A stretch of 64,000 bases of DNA, from contig JBJFGR010000026.1 in NCBI GenBank assembly GCA_051892875.1, positions 7,982-71,981 on the forward strand, read 5' to 3'. The position numbers were made by a program, and so were the translations under genes. The first letter of the stretch is position 1; each line of letters opens with the position of its first letter. This document shows, piece by piece, positions 50,882 through 58,526 of this stretch. The notes beneath the pieces were generated by a model. The model searched no databases, was not told the origin of the DNA, and worked only from the letters and a program-made list of their open reading frames with translations. This DNA is from Succinivibrionaceae bacterium (GTDB taxonomy: Bacteria > Pseudomonadota > Gammaproteobacteria > Enterobacterales > Succinivibrionaceae).

Positions 50882-53800
50882 ATGGATATATTAAGTAAAA
50901 TAATTAAACATACAATAAAAATAATTTTTCATTTTTTTATTACCATATATATTTTTTTATGTTCAAATATAGCTTATGCAGAAATAGATTTACTTAATTA
51001 TAAAGATAAAGACCCTGCACAATTAGGTATCTCCGTAGGTGAAATTCAAAAAAAGATAGAAAATATTGATTCATTAGGAGATTTAGCTTCAGAAATTGAT
51101 AAAAAGTCAAAGATTGAATGGCAAGAAGTTTTATTTGAAATAACTTCTATACTTCAAGATGATGAAGAACTTAATATGATTAAGTCATTTATAAATGGTA
51201 ATACAAGGTCGATAAATGAATTAGAAATATCAAAAGTTCAATCACAAATACAAGAATATAAATTTAACTTATATAAATATGGTGTAAAAGAATTAAATAA
51301 TATTGAATTAAATATAGCTAAGAGTATAGAAGAATATACAACAATACATGAGAAGTTTCGTCTAAATTTAGAAAAAATATCAAGTTTATCATTAAAGAGT
51401 CAAGATAATGCCAATAAATATAATAATGAATTGTTAGATTTACAAAGTAGACTTAATCTTATAACAACTTCTGATTCATATAGAGAATCTGAGAAGTTTT
51501 TGTATGTAGCAAAGATTTCAGCTATTAAATCTCATTTGATATTGAATAATTTTAAGTTAAGTAATAGTGGTGTTTTATTTGAAAAAATAAGATCAACAGT
51601 TCAGCGCTATAAGGAACTGCTAAATAATTTAAATAATCTAAAAATTAAAATCGATGCTCAAATTATAGATTTGAGAAAAAATGAAACATTGCAACAGAAT
51701 GAAATGCTTGGTATAACACCTGAAAGAATTTCAAATAATCAATTTTTATCAGAGTTATATTATGAAAATCGTAGGTTGTATACAGAGCTTTCTGTTATGT
51801 TTGAAAAAAATAATGATTTTCAGAAATATAATCGCCAAATAAATACTTTGATTGAAAGAACTACAAAAATTCAACAAGATATAGAAAATCAAATTCAATA
51901 TTTTGATAACACAATTTTTTTATCAAAAGTTCTATTTAAAAAAAGTGATTTAATACCAAATTATATTTTGCCAATTAATTTGAATGATGAAATTAATATT
52001 TTGCGTTTGCAACAATATGATTACAGTATTGAATTAGAAGAAACAGGTGAAGATGATAATTACATAGCGTATTTATCAAAAAAATATGATTATCCAAATA
52101 TTTTAAAAGAAGAAGATAAAGAGGTTGTTCAAGTTCTAATAACTTCTAGAAAAAAAATTTTATCAGCTTTATTAAGGGAATTATCACCTACGCTGAATAA
52201 TGCCATAAATATGCAAGCTAATATGCAAAAATACAGTAAAATAAAAGATTCAATAACAACCCAAATATACAATCAAATATTTTGGAGTCCTAGTAATTTA
52301 GCAATATCTAAAAAGTGGTTTGAGACTTTTGATAAATCATTACATGAACAGATTACCAAGATTAAGAAAGTTTATGATAAATCAAGCTTTGGTTTATTGG
52401 AACCAAATAATATTGTTAAATCTTTGCCTTTTATATTTTTATGGGGAATTATATCAATACTATATTCGAGAATAAAGAGAATAAAAGCTGAAATAAATTC
52501 TTTTGTTGGTAAGATTAAAACAGATAGACAGTCGTATACTCCAATAGTGATTTTTTTGACCTTGATACAGAGTGTAAGAACTCCATTATTGTTCGGGGCT
52601 ATAGGTTTTATAATTTTAGGTTGCACACAAATAGGTAATAATATTAATGAAATTACAGAATATAATTATATTATTGTTAAAATTGTCCTAGTTGTTTTCT
52701 TGTATTCATGTGTAGCTAATTTTATTTTAAAAACGTGTAAAGAAGGATCTCTTGCTGAAAAACATTTTAAAATCCCTTTTAATAAAAAGGTTTATAACAG
52801 AAATATTCGTTTATTTTCTGCTATGGGTTTATTTTTAGTATTTATAACTTGGAAAATAAGTGATCCTCAAACCTTTTCATACGATATATTAGGACAGGTT
52901 TTTTCAATATTAATTTTAGTTTATTTAGTTGTAGAGATGTCTTTTTCATTAAAGAATAAGATAAAAAAGAGAATTGGAATATGGCAAATAACAGTATCAT
53001 TAATGTCATTATTACTGATTATTTTAGATATAATATTAGTTATTTTTGGGTATTTTTATTCAGCTATTCGTTTAGCTAATATTATTATTGCTACCTATAT
53101 ATCAATGATTTTATACAACATTATTTATTTATCGGTTTTGAGAGCCCTATCCTTAGCTGAAAAAAGACTATATATAAAAAGACGTTTAGAACATAAAGTT
53201 CAAGTTCAGATTAATGAAAATAAGAAAAATAATTTAGATGATAACAAAGAACTCATAGATACTGTCGATTCTGAGATTTCTGTTGCTGATATTAATGAGC
53301 AGACCCGTAAGCTATTTCAATATATATTAGTATCTTGCTTAATTGTTGTTTTATATCAGATGTGGGGGGATATAATTCAATTAACAAGTTATGCTAAATA
53401 TATTACATTGTATACTATCAATGGTGATAATGAATCAATAAAAACAGTTAGTTTATTAGATTTAATATATGTATGCTATAGTATTTTACTTTCTTTTGTA
53501 TTTATAAAGAATTTTCCTGGTTTTCTTGAAGTTTTAATTTTTAATAGGTTTAAAACTTTACAAAATTATAGTTATTCAATAATAACAATTTTAACATACA
53601 TTGTTTTTGCAATGTGTTTACTATTTTGTTGTTCTTCATTAGGTGTTTCTTGGGATAAATTACAATGGTTAGTAGCAGCATTATCTGTTGGTTTAGGTTT
53701 CGGTTTACAAGAAATTTTTGGTAATTTTATATCAGGTTTAATATTATTGTTTGAAAGGCCTATAAGAATAGGTGATTATATAACAATAGACGGAAACTTA

Positions 53801-54262
53801 TGTAAAGTTTTGAAGATTCGTATTCGTTCTACAACTGTTATGGATTTTGATAGAAAAGAGTATATTGTTCCAAATAAAGAATTTATTACTTCAAAAATTA
53901 CAAATTGGTCATTAGAACCAATTACTAGAGTGAAAATGGTTTTTGGGGTAAGTTATAATTCAGATTTAGAATTAGTTAAAAAATTAATTTTAGAAGTTGT
54001 GGAACGCAATCCTTATGTTTTAAAGGAACCAAAGTATTCAGTTGTTCTTACCGATTTTGCGGATAGTGCAGTGGAATTTACTTTACGTATTTATGTTAGA
54101 AGTATCCTAGAAATGACTGTTTGTAGAGATAGTTTAAATATGGAAGTTTTTAAAGTGTTTAATGAAAATAATATAGAAATTCCGTTTAATCAATTGGATG
54201 TTTATATTAAAAATACAAATTCAGCTCAGGAGATAAAGATTCATTCAGGAAACGATATGTAA
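50882..54262 (+). CDS. Large MscS-family mechanosensitive channel (MscK/KefA/MscM-like)
   Basis: Signal peptide plus a long coiled-coil periplasmic domain and multiple TM helices. The MscS core reads GLGFGLQEIFGNFISGLILLFERPIRIGDYI. Confidence 0.8.
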   Translation: MDILSKIIKHTIKIIFHFFITIYIFLCSNIAYAEIDLLNYKDKDPAQLGISVGEIQKKIENIDSLGDLASEIDKKSKIEWQEVLFEITSILQDDEELNMIKSFINGNTRSINELEISKVQSQIQEYKFNLYKYGVKELNNIELNIAKSIEEYTTIHEKFRLNLEKISSLSLKSQDNANKYNNELLDLQSRLNLITTSDSYRESEKFLYVAKISAIKSHLILNNFKLSNSGVLFEKIRSTVQRYKELLNNLNNLKIKIDAQIIDLRKNETLQQNEMLGITPERISNNQFLSELYYENRRLYTELSVMFEKNNDFQKYNRQINTLIERTTKIQQDIENQIQYFDNTIFLSKVLFKKSDLIPNYILPINLNDEINILRLQQYDYSIELEETGEDDNYIAYLSKKYDYPNILKEEDKEVVQVLITSRKKILSALLRELSPTLNNAINMQANMQKYSKIKDSITTQIYNQIFWSPSNLAISKKWFETFDKSLHEQITKIKKVYDKSSFGLLEPNNIVKSLPFIFLWGIISILYSRIKRIKAEINSFVGKIKTDRQSYTPIVIFLTLIQSVRTPLLFGAIGFIILGCTQIGNNINEITEYNYIIVKIVLVVFLYSCVANFILKTCKEGSLAEKHFKIPFNKKVYNRNIRLFSAMGLFLVFITWKISDPQTFSYDILGQVFSILILVYLVVEMSFSLKNKIKKRIGIWQITVSLMSLLLIILDIILVIFGYFYSAIRLANIIIATYISMILYNIIYLSVLRALSLAEKRLYIKRRLEHKVQVQINENKKNNLDDNKELIDTVDSEISVADINEQTRKLFQYILVSCLIVVLYQMWGDIIQLTSYAKYITLYTINGDNESIKTVSLLDLIYVCYSILLSFVFIKNFPGFLEVLIFNRFKTLQNYSYSIITILTYIVFAMCLLFCCSSLGVSWDKLQWLVAALSVGLGFGLQEIFGNFISGLILLFERPIRIGDYITIDGNLCKVLKIRIRSTTVMDFDRKEYIVPNKEFITSKITNWSLEPITRVKMVFGVSYNSDLELVKKLILEVVERNPYVLKEPKYSVVLTDFADSAVEFTLRIYVRSILEMTVCRDSLNMEVFKVFNENNIEIPFNQLDVYIKNTNSAQEIKIHSGNDM

Positions 54263-54454
54263 TTATTGTTTACCATATAGTATATTTTGAGATGTGATTT
54301 GTGCGATTTTTACTATATATTTGTAAGATAGTATTTGTTTTTAACAAGCGATTAATATAGAGAGAATCATACAAGCTCTTTTTAGAATAAGCTTAAAAAA
54401 ATTATTAGATTGTAAGCTTTGTAAGCAGACAAAAAAAAATCATAATTTTTCACA

Positions 54455-54482
54455 TTGATAATTTTTAAATTATATATAAAAT
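54455..54482 (+). promoter_or_regulatory. Promoter of Csr/Rsm-like sRNA 1
   Basis: TTGATA (54455-54460), 16-nt spacer, TAAAAT (54477-54482). The geometry and -10 hexamer are the same as at sRNA 2. Confidence 0.55.
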
Positions 54483-54488
54483 GACAAT

Positions 54489-54621
54489 ATAAACATTGAG
54501 AACAAGGATGTTCGTTTTTACTTATGGATGAGTAGATAATGTTTTTGGGAATATATCCCGTGTTTTATGGATGAGTTATTATGTTTTGGGAAGTTCTTTG
54601 AGAGCTTCCCTTTTCTTTCTT
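54489..54621 (+). ncRNA. Csr/Rsm-family (CsrB/RsmY-like) CsrA-sequestering sRNA candidate 1
   Basis: Hairpin GAAC-AAGGAT-GTTC (54500-54513) presents ACAAGGAUGU in its loop. UUAUGGAUGAGU occurs twice (54522-54533 and 54565-54576). Further GGGA motifs are present. The terminator has a 10-bp stem, GGGAAGTTCT / AGAGCTTCCC (54588-54610), plus TTTTCTTTCTT. There is no ORF. Confidence 0.7.
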
Positions 54622-54700
54622 GTGAATTATTGAATTTTAGAGTAAAGCAAAGTATAATTGAAAACAATTTTTTACAGTATTTTATAGAATAATCTTTTAA

Positions 54701-56026
<1,326 letters not shown>

Positions 56027-56053
56027 TAGAATTACTTAATATTTTTAATGAGT

Positions 56054-56088
56054 AAAACCCAAGCAAGTTTGTTTTTGTTTGGGTTTTT
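56054..56088 (+). terminator. Rho-independent terminator after serS
   Basis: Stem CCCAAGCAA / TTGTTTGGG (9 bp, including one G-U pair), flanked by A4 and T5. Confidence 0.7.
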
Positions 56089-56239
56089 ATGAAATTGAAG
56101 AAAATATGTAACATTTTTAATATGAAACATAAGGTGTTTAATAATTTTTGTGGAAACAAATTAACTATATGAGCTAGTCAACAGACTTTAGTTTGTAGGT
56201 GATATATTGAATAATGTTAAAATTAAAAGGATGTATTTA

Positions 56240-56572
56240 ATGAGTAATGATAATTTAGTAGCAAGTCTTCATGAAGAACTTGAAATGAAAAGTACTGATA
56301 GTATAGATGCAATGCAACATTTTGAATATCAGACAGAAGGTACATGTGCACGCATTATAACTTTTGAAGTAGAAGATAACAAAATACATAATGTACATTT
56401 CATAGGTGGGTGTCCTGGTAATTTAAAAATGATTTCCAAACTAATCGAAGGTATGAATGTGAATGATGTTTATAAAAAGTGTTTAGGAAACACATGTGGA
56501 AACAAAGGAACTTCATGTGCAGATCAGCTAGCTTTAGCTTGTAAGAAATATATGGAACAATTTAAAAAATAA
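56240..56572 (+). CDS. TSCPD-domain protein of the TIGR03905 type
   Basis: EYQTEGTCARIITFEVEDNKIHNVHFIGGCPGNLKMISKLIEGMNVNDV...CGNKGTSCADQLA. The start is uncertain: track TTG at 56207, ATG at 56240 with an AGGA RBS, or ATG at 56312 just before the domain. Confidence 0.65.
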   Translation: MSNDNLVASLHEELEMKSTDSIDAMQHFEYQTEGTCARIITFEVEDNKIHNVHFIGGCPGNLKMISKLIEGMNVNDVYKKCLGNTCGNKGTSCADQLALACKKYMEQFKK

Positions 56573-56584
56573 AGGATATATTTA

Positions 56585-56911
56585 GTGAATACAGAAGATT
56601 TAGTAAGTAGCGTTTCTTGTGCAATTGAAGATATAAAAGGTAAGGATATAGTTGCAATAGATGTAAGTAAAACTTCATCAATAACTGACGTTATGATGAT
56701 ATGTACAGGAACATCCACTAGACATACATGTGCTATAGCTGAAAAAGTATGTGAAGCCATGCATAAAATAAGTGTTGAAACAAATGGTATAGAAGGTGAA
56801 AATCCAGGAGATTGGGTTTTGATTGACCTTGGAAGGGTTGTAGTTCATGTAATGATTCAAGAAGCACGAGATACTTATCAATTAGAAGAACTTTATAGGT
56901 TTGGTGCGTAA
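56585..56911 (+). CDS. rsfS: Ribosome silencing factor RsfS
   Basis: IEDIKGKDIVAIDVSKTSSITDVMMICTGTSTRH...GENPGDWVLIDLGRVVVHVM is colinear with E. coli RsfS. GTG start. Confidence 0.85.
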   Translation: MNTEDLVSSVSCAIEDIKGKDIVAIDVSKTSSITDVMMICTGTSTRHTCAIAEKVCEAMHKISVETNGIEGENPGDWVLIDLGRVVVHVMIQEARDTYQLEELYRFGA

Positions 56912-56917
56912 TTATTA

Positions 56918-57595
56918 ATGAATGGTAATATTACAACACAAGATGTTTTCAAAGCAGTAAATGAATTAGTTGCAGATGGAGAACGTATAACTTTAGCCAA
57001 TGTAAGAGCAAAAATTGGGAGGGGATCTTATGCAACTATTAAAAAGTTTCTAATACAACAAAATATTTCGACTGCACGTATTTCTGCGAATGTTGGTAAA
57101 GATGTTGTTGTTTCAAAAGTATCAGATTCTTTAGCTTCTGTTTTAAAAGATACTCAATCAGCAATTTTAGTCGCAACTGCAAAAGAAGAATGTTATAAAA
57201 AGCAACTTTCACAAAAAAAAATAGATGATTTTATATTAATAGCTGAAATGGTTATTGAAGAATTTATAGCAGAGATATTAGAAAATCACTTACCTGTTGA
57301 TAATTTATTAAAAGTTTTTAATAGCGATGTAAAAATTAGAAACATTATTACTACAAAAGAAACAGATACTCCAAGTATTGTAGAACCTACTGGAGTTGAT
57401 GTTATAGTACATAGTATGAAAGATGTTTTGGTTGATGAAATTTGCTCGTATATCAATAAAGTTATTCAAAACACTTATCAAGTAAATTCTTATGCAGGTG
57501 GGGTAAATAGCTTATTAGCTATTCAACATATGTTACTTGATTTAAAACAAAAGTTTAGGAAAGAAATTCAGTATGAGCAAGCTTACCACTACTGA
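56918..57595 (+). CDS. KfrA_N-type DNA-binding protein with helical C-terminal region (paralogue 1)
   Basis: ITTQDVFKAVNELVADGERITLANVRAKIGRGSYATIKKFL matches the KfrA N-terminal DNA-binding pattern. It starts 6 nt after the rsfS stop. Confidence 0.6.
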   Translation: MNGNITTQDVFKAVNELVADGERITLANVRAKIGRGSYATIKKFLIQQNISTARISANVGKDVVVSKVSDSLASVLKDTQSAILVATAKEECYKKQLSQKKIDDFILIAEMVIEEFIAEILENHLPVDNLLKVFNSDVKIRNIITTKETDTPSIVEPTGVDVIVHSMKDVLVDEICSYINKVIQNTYQVNSYAGGVNSLLAIQHMLLDLKQKFRKEIQYEQAYHY

Positions 57596-58091
57596 GATAA
57601 ACACAGTTATATCTAAATTATTATCAGAAGGAAAAAAAGTGAGTACTAAAAATGTACGAACTGAATTGGGATATGGTTCTTATTCATCAATACAAGAAAT
57701 CTTAAGAGAATTAGGTTATTTAGACGATAAACAAAAAATAGAAGATAAAGAAGAATCTAATGATACTATTAGTAGATTATTAGAGAAATATCAACAAGAG
57801 TTACAATTAAAAAATAAAGAAGTAAAAGATAAGGAATATTTATTAAAAAAATATGATGTTACTATTAGTAAAAAAATAGAATATGCTAATAATAATTTAA
57901 AACATTTTAATGACAGGATTTTAAAAGATAAAATAGTACCAACTATTCCTAACGATCTAATAAAATTATTAAATGAAGTTAGAGAGGTTCTTTATAAAAA
58001 AATTTCTATGCTATCTGATAATAAAGGGGACTATTATCTAGATAAAGCAAAAAGACTTCATCAGATGATGATCTTAAATAAAGATTCGTAA
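57573..58091 (+). CDS. KfrA_N-type DNA-binding protein with K/E-rich coiled-coil tail (paralogue 2)
   Basis: TTTEINTVISKLLSEGKKVSTKNVRTELGYGSYSSIQEILREL. It overlaps paralogue 1 by 23 nt. Confidence 0.6.
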   Translation: MSKLTTTEINTVISKLLSEGKKVSTKNVRTELGYGSYSSIQEILRELGYLDDKQKIEDKEESNDTISRLLEKYQQELQLKNKEVKDKEYLLKKYDVTISKKIEYANNNLKHFNDRILKDKIVPTIPNDLIKLLNEVREVLYKKISMLSDNKGDYYLDKAKRLHQMMILNKDS

Positions 58092-58151
58092 TTATAAAAT
58101 CAAAAAAAGAGTACTTATCCACTTATTTATCACCAAAATTATTAACGATAT

Positions 58152-58170
58152 ATTCACAAAAATTGTGAAT
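58152..58170 (+). terminator. Palindrome ATTCACAA-AAA-TTGTGAAT after the second kfrA-like gene (terminator or operator candidate)
   Basis: 8-bp stem with a 3-nt loop, followed by the T-rich TATATTTTATTTTT. Confidence 0.35.
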
Positions 58171-58370
58171 TATATTTTATTTTTGAAGTAATTATTTTAA
58201 TAAACAGTCTTACATTTTTTAAACAAGATTACAAAAGAGAAATAAGTATTGTGAGATATTTGCTACAAGTTTGTAGGTCATTAATAGAAAAATTCAAAAA
58301 ACATGCTTTTAAACCATTGTAGTATAAGCTCTTATAAAAAGTGTGATTAATATTGCTTTTTGTGAGACTA

Positions 58371-58398
58371 TTGTATTTTATGCATAAAAAGTTAAAAT
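58371..58398 (+). promoter_or_regulatory. Promoter of Csr/Rsm-like sRNA 2
   Basis: TTGTAT (58371-58376), 16-nt spacer, TAAAAT (58393-58398). TAAAATGA follows, as at sRNA 1. Confidence 0.55.
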
Positions 58399-58404
58399 GA
58401 TTAC

Positions 58405-58526
58405 ATGAATAGCGAGGAACAAGGATGTTCCGAAATTGATACTTAGGATGAGAATCAACTATTCAGGACAAGGATGTCCGAAACAAATTAAAGTAGGGAG
58501 GTTAGGATGACCTCCCTTTTCATTTC
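58405..58526 (+). ncRNA. Csr/Rsm-family CsrA-sequestering sRNA candidate 2
   Basis: Hairpins GGAAC-AAGGAT-GTTCC (58416-58431) and GGAC-AAGGAT-GTCC (58466-58479) are present. A single-stranded CUUAGGAUGAG lies at 58442-58452. The terminator GGGAGGT-TAGGATG-ACCTCCC (58496-58516) displays GGA in its loop and is followed by TTTT. There are seven GGA motifs, four of them as AGGAUG. Confidence 0.7.

Follow-up and report, generated by a model that had tools for sequence, protein, structure and literature searches.

A probable Csr/Rsm-type small RNA gene upstream of serS in a Succinivibrionaceae bacterium

The spacer between an MscK-like gene (mscK) and serS in a Succinivibrionaceae bacterium extends from position 54263 to 54715 (453 nt, 24 per cent GC) of the 64,000-nt stretch of DNA analyzed here, hereafter the window. 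A first-pass annotation made from the sequence alone had described this spacer as a non-coding gap of about 450 nt holding a complete small transcription unit, and every element that it listed is present in the sequence where it had been placed. We refer to the unit as candidate 1, and its features are collected in Table 1 with those of three related units from the same genome. The assembly (2.73 Mb, 156 contigs, 30 per cent GC) comes from an uncultured bacterium, and no other species of its genus is included among the genomes compared. The nearest relatives of its SerS are the proteins of Ruminobacter (80 per cent identity), Succinimonas (76 per cent) and Anaerobiospirillum (73 per cent).

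Table 1. Coordinates of candidate 1, its neighbors and its paralogues. Positions are those of the window unless a contig (C61, C11) is named; R1 is the covariance model described in the text.
Feature	Position	Strand	Remarks
MscK-like gene (mscK)	50882-54262		5' neighbor of the candidate 1 gap
Putative UvrY/GacA-type box, 18 bp, TGTGCGATTTTTACTATA	54300-54317	+	centre at about -181 from the predicted start
Auxiliary half-site TGTAAG	54322-54327	+	4 bp downstream of the box
Predicted promoter TTGATA-16-TAAAAT	54455-54482	+	10 of 12 consensus positions
Predicted sRNA body, candidate 1	54489-54621	+	about 132 nt; predicted start; R1 match at 54487-54621
Hairpin H1, GAAC-AAGGAU-GUUC	54500-54513	+	best CsrA-site look-alike; aligns to H1 of R1
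Hairpin H2, UUUACUUA-UGGA-UGAGUAGA	54517-54536	+	8-bp stem, UGGA loop; aligns to H2 of R1
Short hairpin GGGA-AUAUA-UCCC, then UGUUUUAU	54546-54560	+	weak, terminator-like; loop without GGA
Hairpin H4	54560-54579	+	weak; second UGGA loop; within the internal duplication
Intrinsic terminator	54588-54621	+	10-bp stem 54588-54597/54601-54610, UUG loop, U-tract
serS	54716-56026		3' neighbor of the candidate 1 gap
Box of candidate 2, TGTGAGATATTTGCTACA	58250-58267	+	same box in the C61 copy
Candidate 2 unit	58250-58520	+	box, promoter and sRNA (58403-58520); four GGA loops including the terminator loop
C61 copy of candidate 2	C61:1735-1400	-	95 per cent identical, including about 190 nt of upstream DNA and the UvrY-type box
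C11 sRNA gene	C11:4505-4375	-	4693-4375 with its box TGTAAGATATTTGCTATA; about 80 nt from the contig end

The hexamers of the promoter are not in themselves persuasive, given that promoter-like matches in this AT-rich gap occur at background frequency (7 against 5.8 expected). The promoter gains credibility instead from a geometry conserved with the paralogues: candidate 2, the second unit in the window, carries TTGTAT-16-TAAAAT, and 17 nt separate the -10 hexamer from the first hairpin in candidate 1, against 18 nt in candidate 2. The claim that the body of about 130 nt is free of open reading frames holds loosely, although two mechanical frames overlap the region, one of 41 aa on the plus strand (54567-54692) and one of 49 aa on the minus strand (54518-54667), both crossing the terminator and the serS promoter. 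The terminator does have the ten base pairs described, followed by TTTTCTTTCTT, but 'GC-rich' overstates its stem, in which only five of the ten pairs are G-C.

Folding places all three A(N)GGA motifs of candidate 1 in hairpin loops, as the first-pass annotation had anticipated, with very different degrees of exposure. H1 has a stem of only 4 bp, and the GGA in its ACAAGGAUGU is unpaired with a probability of about 0.7; the surrounding GAACAAGGAUGU agrees with 11 of the 12 positions of the quoted CsrA consensus RUACARGGAUGU. The GGA of the first UAUGGAUGA, in H2, is unpaired with a probability of 0.98, and that of the second UAUGGAUGA, in H4, with a probability of about 0.45. Under a strict AGGA/ARGGA definition there is one site (CAAGGA), the other two being AUGGA and fitting A(N)GGA only. 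The annotation had also counted extra GGGA motifs; both are base-paired within stems (probability unpaired at most 0.22 and 0.00) and are therefore not additional CsrA binding sites.

There are exactly two copies of TTATGGATGAGT, at 54522 and 54565, as had been noted. A pair of this 12-mer is not rare by itself, since at least two matches were found in 15 of 100 shuffled sequences. Both copies belong to an internal duplication of 30 nt in which 54522-54551 is copied as 54565-54592, and its alignment score of 36 compares with 13.4 +/- 2.4 in shuffled sequences, none of 2000 reaching as high. Clustering of the motifs is likewise uncommon: three or more WGGATG within 110 nt on one strand occur at only five places in the 2.73-Mb genome, where we estimate that about two would be expected by chance, and three of these five are candidate 1, candidate 2 (at 58403) and the duplicate of the latter on contig C61, all of them non-coding and ended by a terminator.

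Three further sRNA genes of the same design are found in this genome, at 58403-58520 of the window and on contigs C61 and C11. Candidate 2, located by a search for ACARGGATGT, folds into GGAAC-AAGGAU-GUUCC, CUU-AGGAU-GAG, GGAC-AAGGAU-GUCC and a terminator with GGA in its loop, and all four GGA motifs are unpaired with a probability of 1.0; it is a textbook Rsm-like sRNA and cleaner than candidate 1. The segment that it shares with its C61 copy starts some 35 nt before the box, so that the regulatory unit seems to have been duplicated as a whole. The C11 gene was discovered through its upstream box rather than through its RNA sequence, and consists of the hairpins GGAGAC-AUGGAU-GUUUCC, GUUCU-UAGGACG-AGAAC and GAAC-AUGGAC-GUUC followed by a terminator. 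A core pattern, GGATGTT-N5-16-CTTA-N0-1-GGAYGAG, has exactly four matches in the genome, one in each of the four units, all of them terminated and non-coding. Candidates 1 and 2 lie on the same strand and flank a block of genes from serS to kfrA-like genes (window 54489-58520). Recombination between them would excise or invert nothing, and might mark a rearrangement border.

Homology between candidate 1 and these genes was assessed with a covariance model. A MAFFT alignment of all four sRNAs placed H1 of candidate 1 against H3 of the others, and for this reason the model (R1) was built without candidate 1, from candidate 2, the C61 copy and the C11 gene. The three paralogues support a four-helix structure, with pairing in 97 per cent of cells and six compensatory pairs distributed over all four helices, compared with none or one in slid controls. 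R1 recovers candidate 1 along the full length of the model with 29.5 bits and an E-value of 3.3e-5, a rough figure given an effective sequence number of 1.25; this is the second best match in the window, where unrelated matches reach at most 17 bits. H1, H2 and the terminator align, while H3 is replaced by a 27-nt insert in which the GGGA-AUAUA-UCCC hairpin takes the position of the third hairpin of the paralogues. The outer pairs of the H2 stem differ from those of either paralogue yet still pair. R1 also matches GGA-hairpin sRNAs in 11 other genomes from 6 genera. By this model candidate 1 is recognizably homologous to the three cleaner Rsm-like sRNA genes of its genome, even though the paralogues themselves score far higher (122-151 bits).

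The region upstream of candidate 1 holds a putative UvrY-type box. It agrees with 15 of the 18 positions of a family consensus, TGTRAGATATTTGCYAYA, with one of its three mismatches in the TGTRAG half-site. Genome-wide, boxes with three mismatches are at background level, with 54 matches and 44 in the control, but the chance of a 15/18 box at that exact spacing is about 4e-5 by our estimate from match counts. The auxiliary TGTAAG that follows it is mirrored in candidate 2 by TGTAGG (58272-58277) at an equal 4-bp spacing from the box, and in the C11 gene by only TAGTAGG near this position. An earlier choice of candidate 1 box, TGTAAGATA at 54322, was replaced by the box at 54300-54317, and its TGTAAG is now read as the auxiliary element.

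At no more than one mismatch the consensus TGTRAGATATTTGCYAYA has 51 matches in 25 of the 98 family genomes and in 10 of 17 genera, against a single match in the control, and 22 of the 23 distinct boxes in the loci that were fetched precede an RNA rich in GGA-loop hairpins. Computed from coordinates, the distance from the start of the box to the start of the RNA is 186-189 nt in 8 of 13 cases: 187 nt for candidate 1, 188 nt for the C11 gene, 186 nt for both copies in genome G072 and for G034, 189 nt for G009, and 189 and 187 nt for one copy each in G022 and G010, whose second copies lie at 178 and 207 nt. The remaining distances are 153 nt for both candidate 2 and its C61 copy, and 289 nt for G073. 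In Escherichia coli, UvrY footprints an 18-nt inverted repeat of csrB, TGTGAGAGATCTCTTACA, centred at -183/-182 (PMC4682653). The putative box of candidate 1 therefore sits at a position that is typical both of the family and of E. coli csrB.

Box matches in the family are often arranged in same-strand pairs 400-700 nt apart. Tandem box-plus-sRNA pairs with 450-700 nt between units are seen at G022:C5, G072:C13 and G010:C114 and in genus g14, and no Rfam family reaches threshold at any of these loci. In genus g14, whose SerS is about 80-81 per cent identical to that of the window, the GGA-hairpin region after the box seems longer, with at least five hairpins. Closer to the candidate 1 promoter, the direct repeat TGTAAGCTTTGTAAGC (54411-54426) lies within 54386-54427, roughly 78 and 69 nt before the predicted start, and three AAGCTT palindromes are found near it. 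These might be extra UvrY half-sites or the site of another factor; the repeat has no counterpart upstream of candidate 2.

It might be supposed that such elements came together by chance in AT-rich spacer DNA, particularly as the promoter-like matches and the 12-mer repeat are each at background when taken individually. We consider this hardly credible in the face of the covariance-model match, the genome-wide rarity of the motif cluster, the position-specific upstream box and the significant internal duplication.

BLAST of the locus against 60 relatives returned no homologue of candidate 1, the syntenic regions upstream of serS in 29 relatives contain no sRNA, and the core pattern has no match in the 97 other family genomes or in the control; no orthologue was found in these genomes. 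A pattern scan of genome contigs gave three matches (in Desulfuromusa, a Clostridia bacterium and Treponema), about the number expected by chance, and a scan of metagenome contigs gave 31 matches, none with a box or a terminator and none an orthologue. By our reading most of the latter are coding sequence for an NrdR-like C-terminus (...FKDVNTFMDEL...). The arrangement CAAGGATGTT-N7-TTATGGATGAG recurs in many metagenome contigs, where we read it as encoding this conserved C-terminal peptide of an NrdR-like protein, and is a trap for motif-based searches for Csr sRNAs. A contig whose SerS is 87 per cent identical to that of the window has no sRNA within the 178 nt that it retains upstream of serS. 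The serS promoter core, GCAAAGTATAAT (window 54630-54658), is itself conserved in several genera of the family (L020, L021, L025 and L028), and the sRNA unit is inserted between the position of the mscK terminator and this promoter.

In the nearest syntenic genome (L020) a terminator and the conserved serS promoter are all that the same gap contains, and in the window there is nothing terminator-like from the mscK stop codon (54262) to 54546, so that read-through from mscK into the unit is possible. One could therefore regard the stretch as no more than an mscK 3' untranslated region with its terminator, with RNA produced by read-through and GGA motifs that play no role. This seems very unlikely to us, since it leaves unexplained the homology to three independent sRNA genes, the conserved spacing from promoter to first hairpin and the UvrY-type box at its usual distance; moreover, read-through and a promoter of its own are mutually compatible.

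A more serious alternative is that candidate 1 is a decaying duplicate of a Csr sRNA gene, perhaps weakly transcribed and with little capacity to titrate CsrA. Such a history would account for the three mismatches in the box, the third hairpin without a GGA loop, the weak second UGGA hairpin, the R1 score of 29.5 bits where paralogues reach 122-151, the lack of an orthologue in other genomes, and an internal duplication that has left a degenerate terminator-like stem. Given sites that are few and partly weak, a degenerate box and neither an Rfam match nor an orthologue, decay stays a real alternative, if an unlikely one. It sits less well with the intact promoter, the 187-nt box spacing, the auxiliary TGTAAG, the intact H1, H2 and strong terminator, and an H2 stem that has been maintained through different base pairs. 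The layout of five hairpins with UGGA loops also resembles that of the intact tandem sRNAs in a neighboring genus (G022).

The reading that we prefer is the one proposed in the first-pass annotation, a Csr/Rsm-type sponge RNA, which is supported by the homology captured in R1, the upstream box, the GGA loops and the regulators encoded elsewhere in the genome. Gamma-proteobacteria with BarA, UvrY and CsrA are expected to carry sponge RNAs, and all three proteins are present above the curated NCBIfam cut-offs: CsrA, encoded downstream of alaS, with 79.4 bits (cut-off 73), a UvrY/GacA orthologue with 332 bits (cut-off 280) and a BarA orthologue with 937 bits (cut-off 890). On these grounds 54300-54621 is probably a complete gene for a small CsrA-sequestering RNA, and candidate 1 is very likely a diverged member of an undescribed but otherwise conventional family of sponge RNAs.

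A plausible course of events can be proposed, in which transcription, start site, UvrY binding, CsrA binding and stoichiometry are all inferred. UvrY, phosphorylated through the sensor kinase BarA, would bind the far-upstream 18-bp box and activate the sigma-70 promoter at 54455-54482, and the resulting transcript of about 132 nt would stop at the intrinsic terminator. It would display three A(N)GGA loop motifs (AAGGAU, UGGA and UGGA), of which those in H1 and H2 are 20 nt apart, a spacing well fitted to a single CsrA dimer that bridges both, while the duplicated module would contribute a third and weaker site. Given three loop motifs and a spacing that permits dimer bridging, the RNA may titrate one to two CsrA dimers off mRNA leaders, acting jointly with the three paralogous sRNAs; the four genes combined offer about 14 sites. 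As to origin, candidate 1 would be a lineage-specific, diverged copy placed between mscK and serS, which underwent an internal duplication of 43 nt and lost the GGA loop of its third hairpin.

A bolder proposal is that Csr output in the Succinivibrionaceae consists of arrays of tiny sponges, each with 3-4 sites and often tandem or recently duplicated, rather than one or two large RNAs, with candidate 1 a specialized member producing two isoforms. If this were true, the duplication would have made a weak internal terminator (54546-54567), an isoform of about 75 nt would bind one CsrA dimer and the isoform of about 132 nt would bind more, and titration of CsrA could be graded or differently timed as BarA responds to the short-chain acids of a gut or rumen environment. 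We regard this proposal as doubtful.

The Succinivibrionaceae are abundant succinate producers of the rumen and gut that are known mostly from metagenome-assembled genomes. Their sponge RNAs are absent from Rfam, and the literature that we searched contains no paper linking the family to CsrA or to CsrB sponge RNAs. The locus, its paralogues and the box TGTRAGATATTTGCYAYA together offer a simple route to annotating Csr output RNAs across the family, and the circuit could couple the control of carbon storage and motility to the fermentation-acid environment of the gut. As a diverged copy of low valency, candidate 1 would be useful for the study of gene duplication and decay without being conceptually new; the more useful result is at the level of the family, namely small, multi-copy Csr RNAs tagged by a box in a gut and rumen lineage.

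The likeness to CsrB, CsrC, RsmY and RsmZ drawn in the first-pass annotation is not echoed by the corresponding Rfam models (RF00018, RF00084, RF00195 and PrrB_RsmZ RF00166, respectively), none of which lists candidate 1 even at E-values up to 10, and across the whole 64-kb window no Rfam family reaches its gathering score. RF00018 and RF00166 have no match in the genome itself and give only sub-threshold matches across 61 family genomes, neither model having a match at gathering score in the family. Three of these sub-threshold matches were read and discarded: one is a terminator beside a coding sequence, another is a coding region and the third is an ordinary intergenic terminator. A partial sbrA match obtained in permissive mode covers only the terminator of candidate 1 and was likewise set aside. 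Candidate 2 does match RsmZ over its full length, at a sub-threshold 17.8 bits.

The missing Rfam matches could also indicate that candidate 1 is not a protein sponge at all, but an sRNA of the base-pairing (Hfq) type or one from another structured class. TwoAYGGAY RNAs, originally described in human gut metagenomes and gamma-proteobacteria, have AYGGAY hairpin loops, a pattern that both AUGGAU loops of candidate 1 would fit. However, the TwoAYGGAY model (RF01731) finds no match in candidates 1 and 2 at E-values up to 10, nor in the C11 gene up to 5, and these RNAs differ in architecture and context: their two hairpins share a basal stem, and in Pseudomonas the element is high-copy and associated with repeats. 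Since the paralogues are also of classic Rsm design, with GGA in the terminator loop and, in candidate 2, the weak full-length resemblance to RsmZ, we give a base-pairing or TwoAYGGAY-like identity little more than a slim chance. Candidate 1 is better described as Csr/Rsm-type by design while lying outside the curated CsrB, CsrC, RsmY and RsmZ families.

Five criteria have been set out for predicting CsrA-regulating sRNAs (Kulkarni et al. 2006; PMC1488887). Four are found in candidate 1, namely an intergenic location, a terminator, GGA in loops and a UvrY/GacA-type upstream site, and the criterion of motif density (AGGA/ARGGA) is found in part, with one ARGGA and two AUGGA. CsrB1, CsrB2 and the multi-copy csrB homologues of the Vibrionaceae were predicted by the same five criteria, and they too have several paralogues per genome and a conserved 18-bp upstream site. 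Size sets them apart, as the Vibrio RNAs reach about 416-420 nt and carry 21 motifs (PMC1488887), while each of the Succinivibrionaceae RNAs described here has about 120-130 nt and 3-4 motifs.

The csrB and csrC genes of E. coli and Salmonella resemble candidate 1 in having GGA hairpin loops followed by an intrinsic terminator, in the presence of BarA, UvrY and CsrA, and in a UvrY-type inverted repeat of 18 bp located some 180 nt upstream. The inverted repeats of csrC, TGTGAGACATTGCCGATA and TGTGAGACATTGACCATT (PMC4682653), are especially close to the family consensus TGTGAGA(T/C)ATTTGCCATA. The box is followed after 4-5 bp by a TGTAGG/TGTAAG element, which has its counterpart at csrB in TGTAGGAGA, 5 bp beyond the inverted repeat in both E. 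coli and Salmonella (PMC4682653). The RNAs themselves differ, candidate 1 having about 132 nt and three sites rather than about 9-22, with no match to CsrB or CsrC by sequence or covariance model. CsrB is about 369 nt long and CsrC about 245 nt.

The RsmX, RsmY and RsmZ RNAs of Pseudomonas and the RsmY and RsmZ RNAs of Legionella (RF00195, RF00166, RF02144) are alike in length (110-135 nt), in their four to five stem-loops with GGA in the loops, in having several paralogues per genome and in a GacA/UvrY-type upstream activating sequence; the GGA in the terminator loop is shared by the paralogues of candidate 1. Candidate 1 differs from them in matching none of their models, in a box whose second half reads GCYAYA rather than CTTACA, and in its smaller number of GGA sites. 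On sequence and predicted structure, then, candidate 1 appears to resemble RsmY and RsmZ in size and design, and csrB and csrC in the architecture of its promoter.
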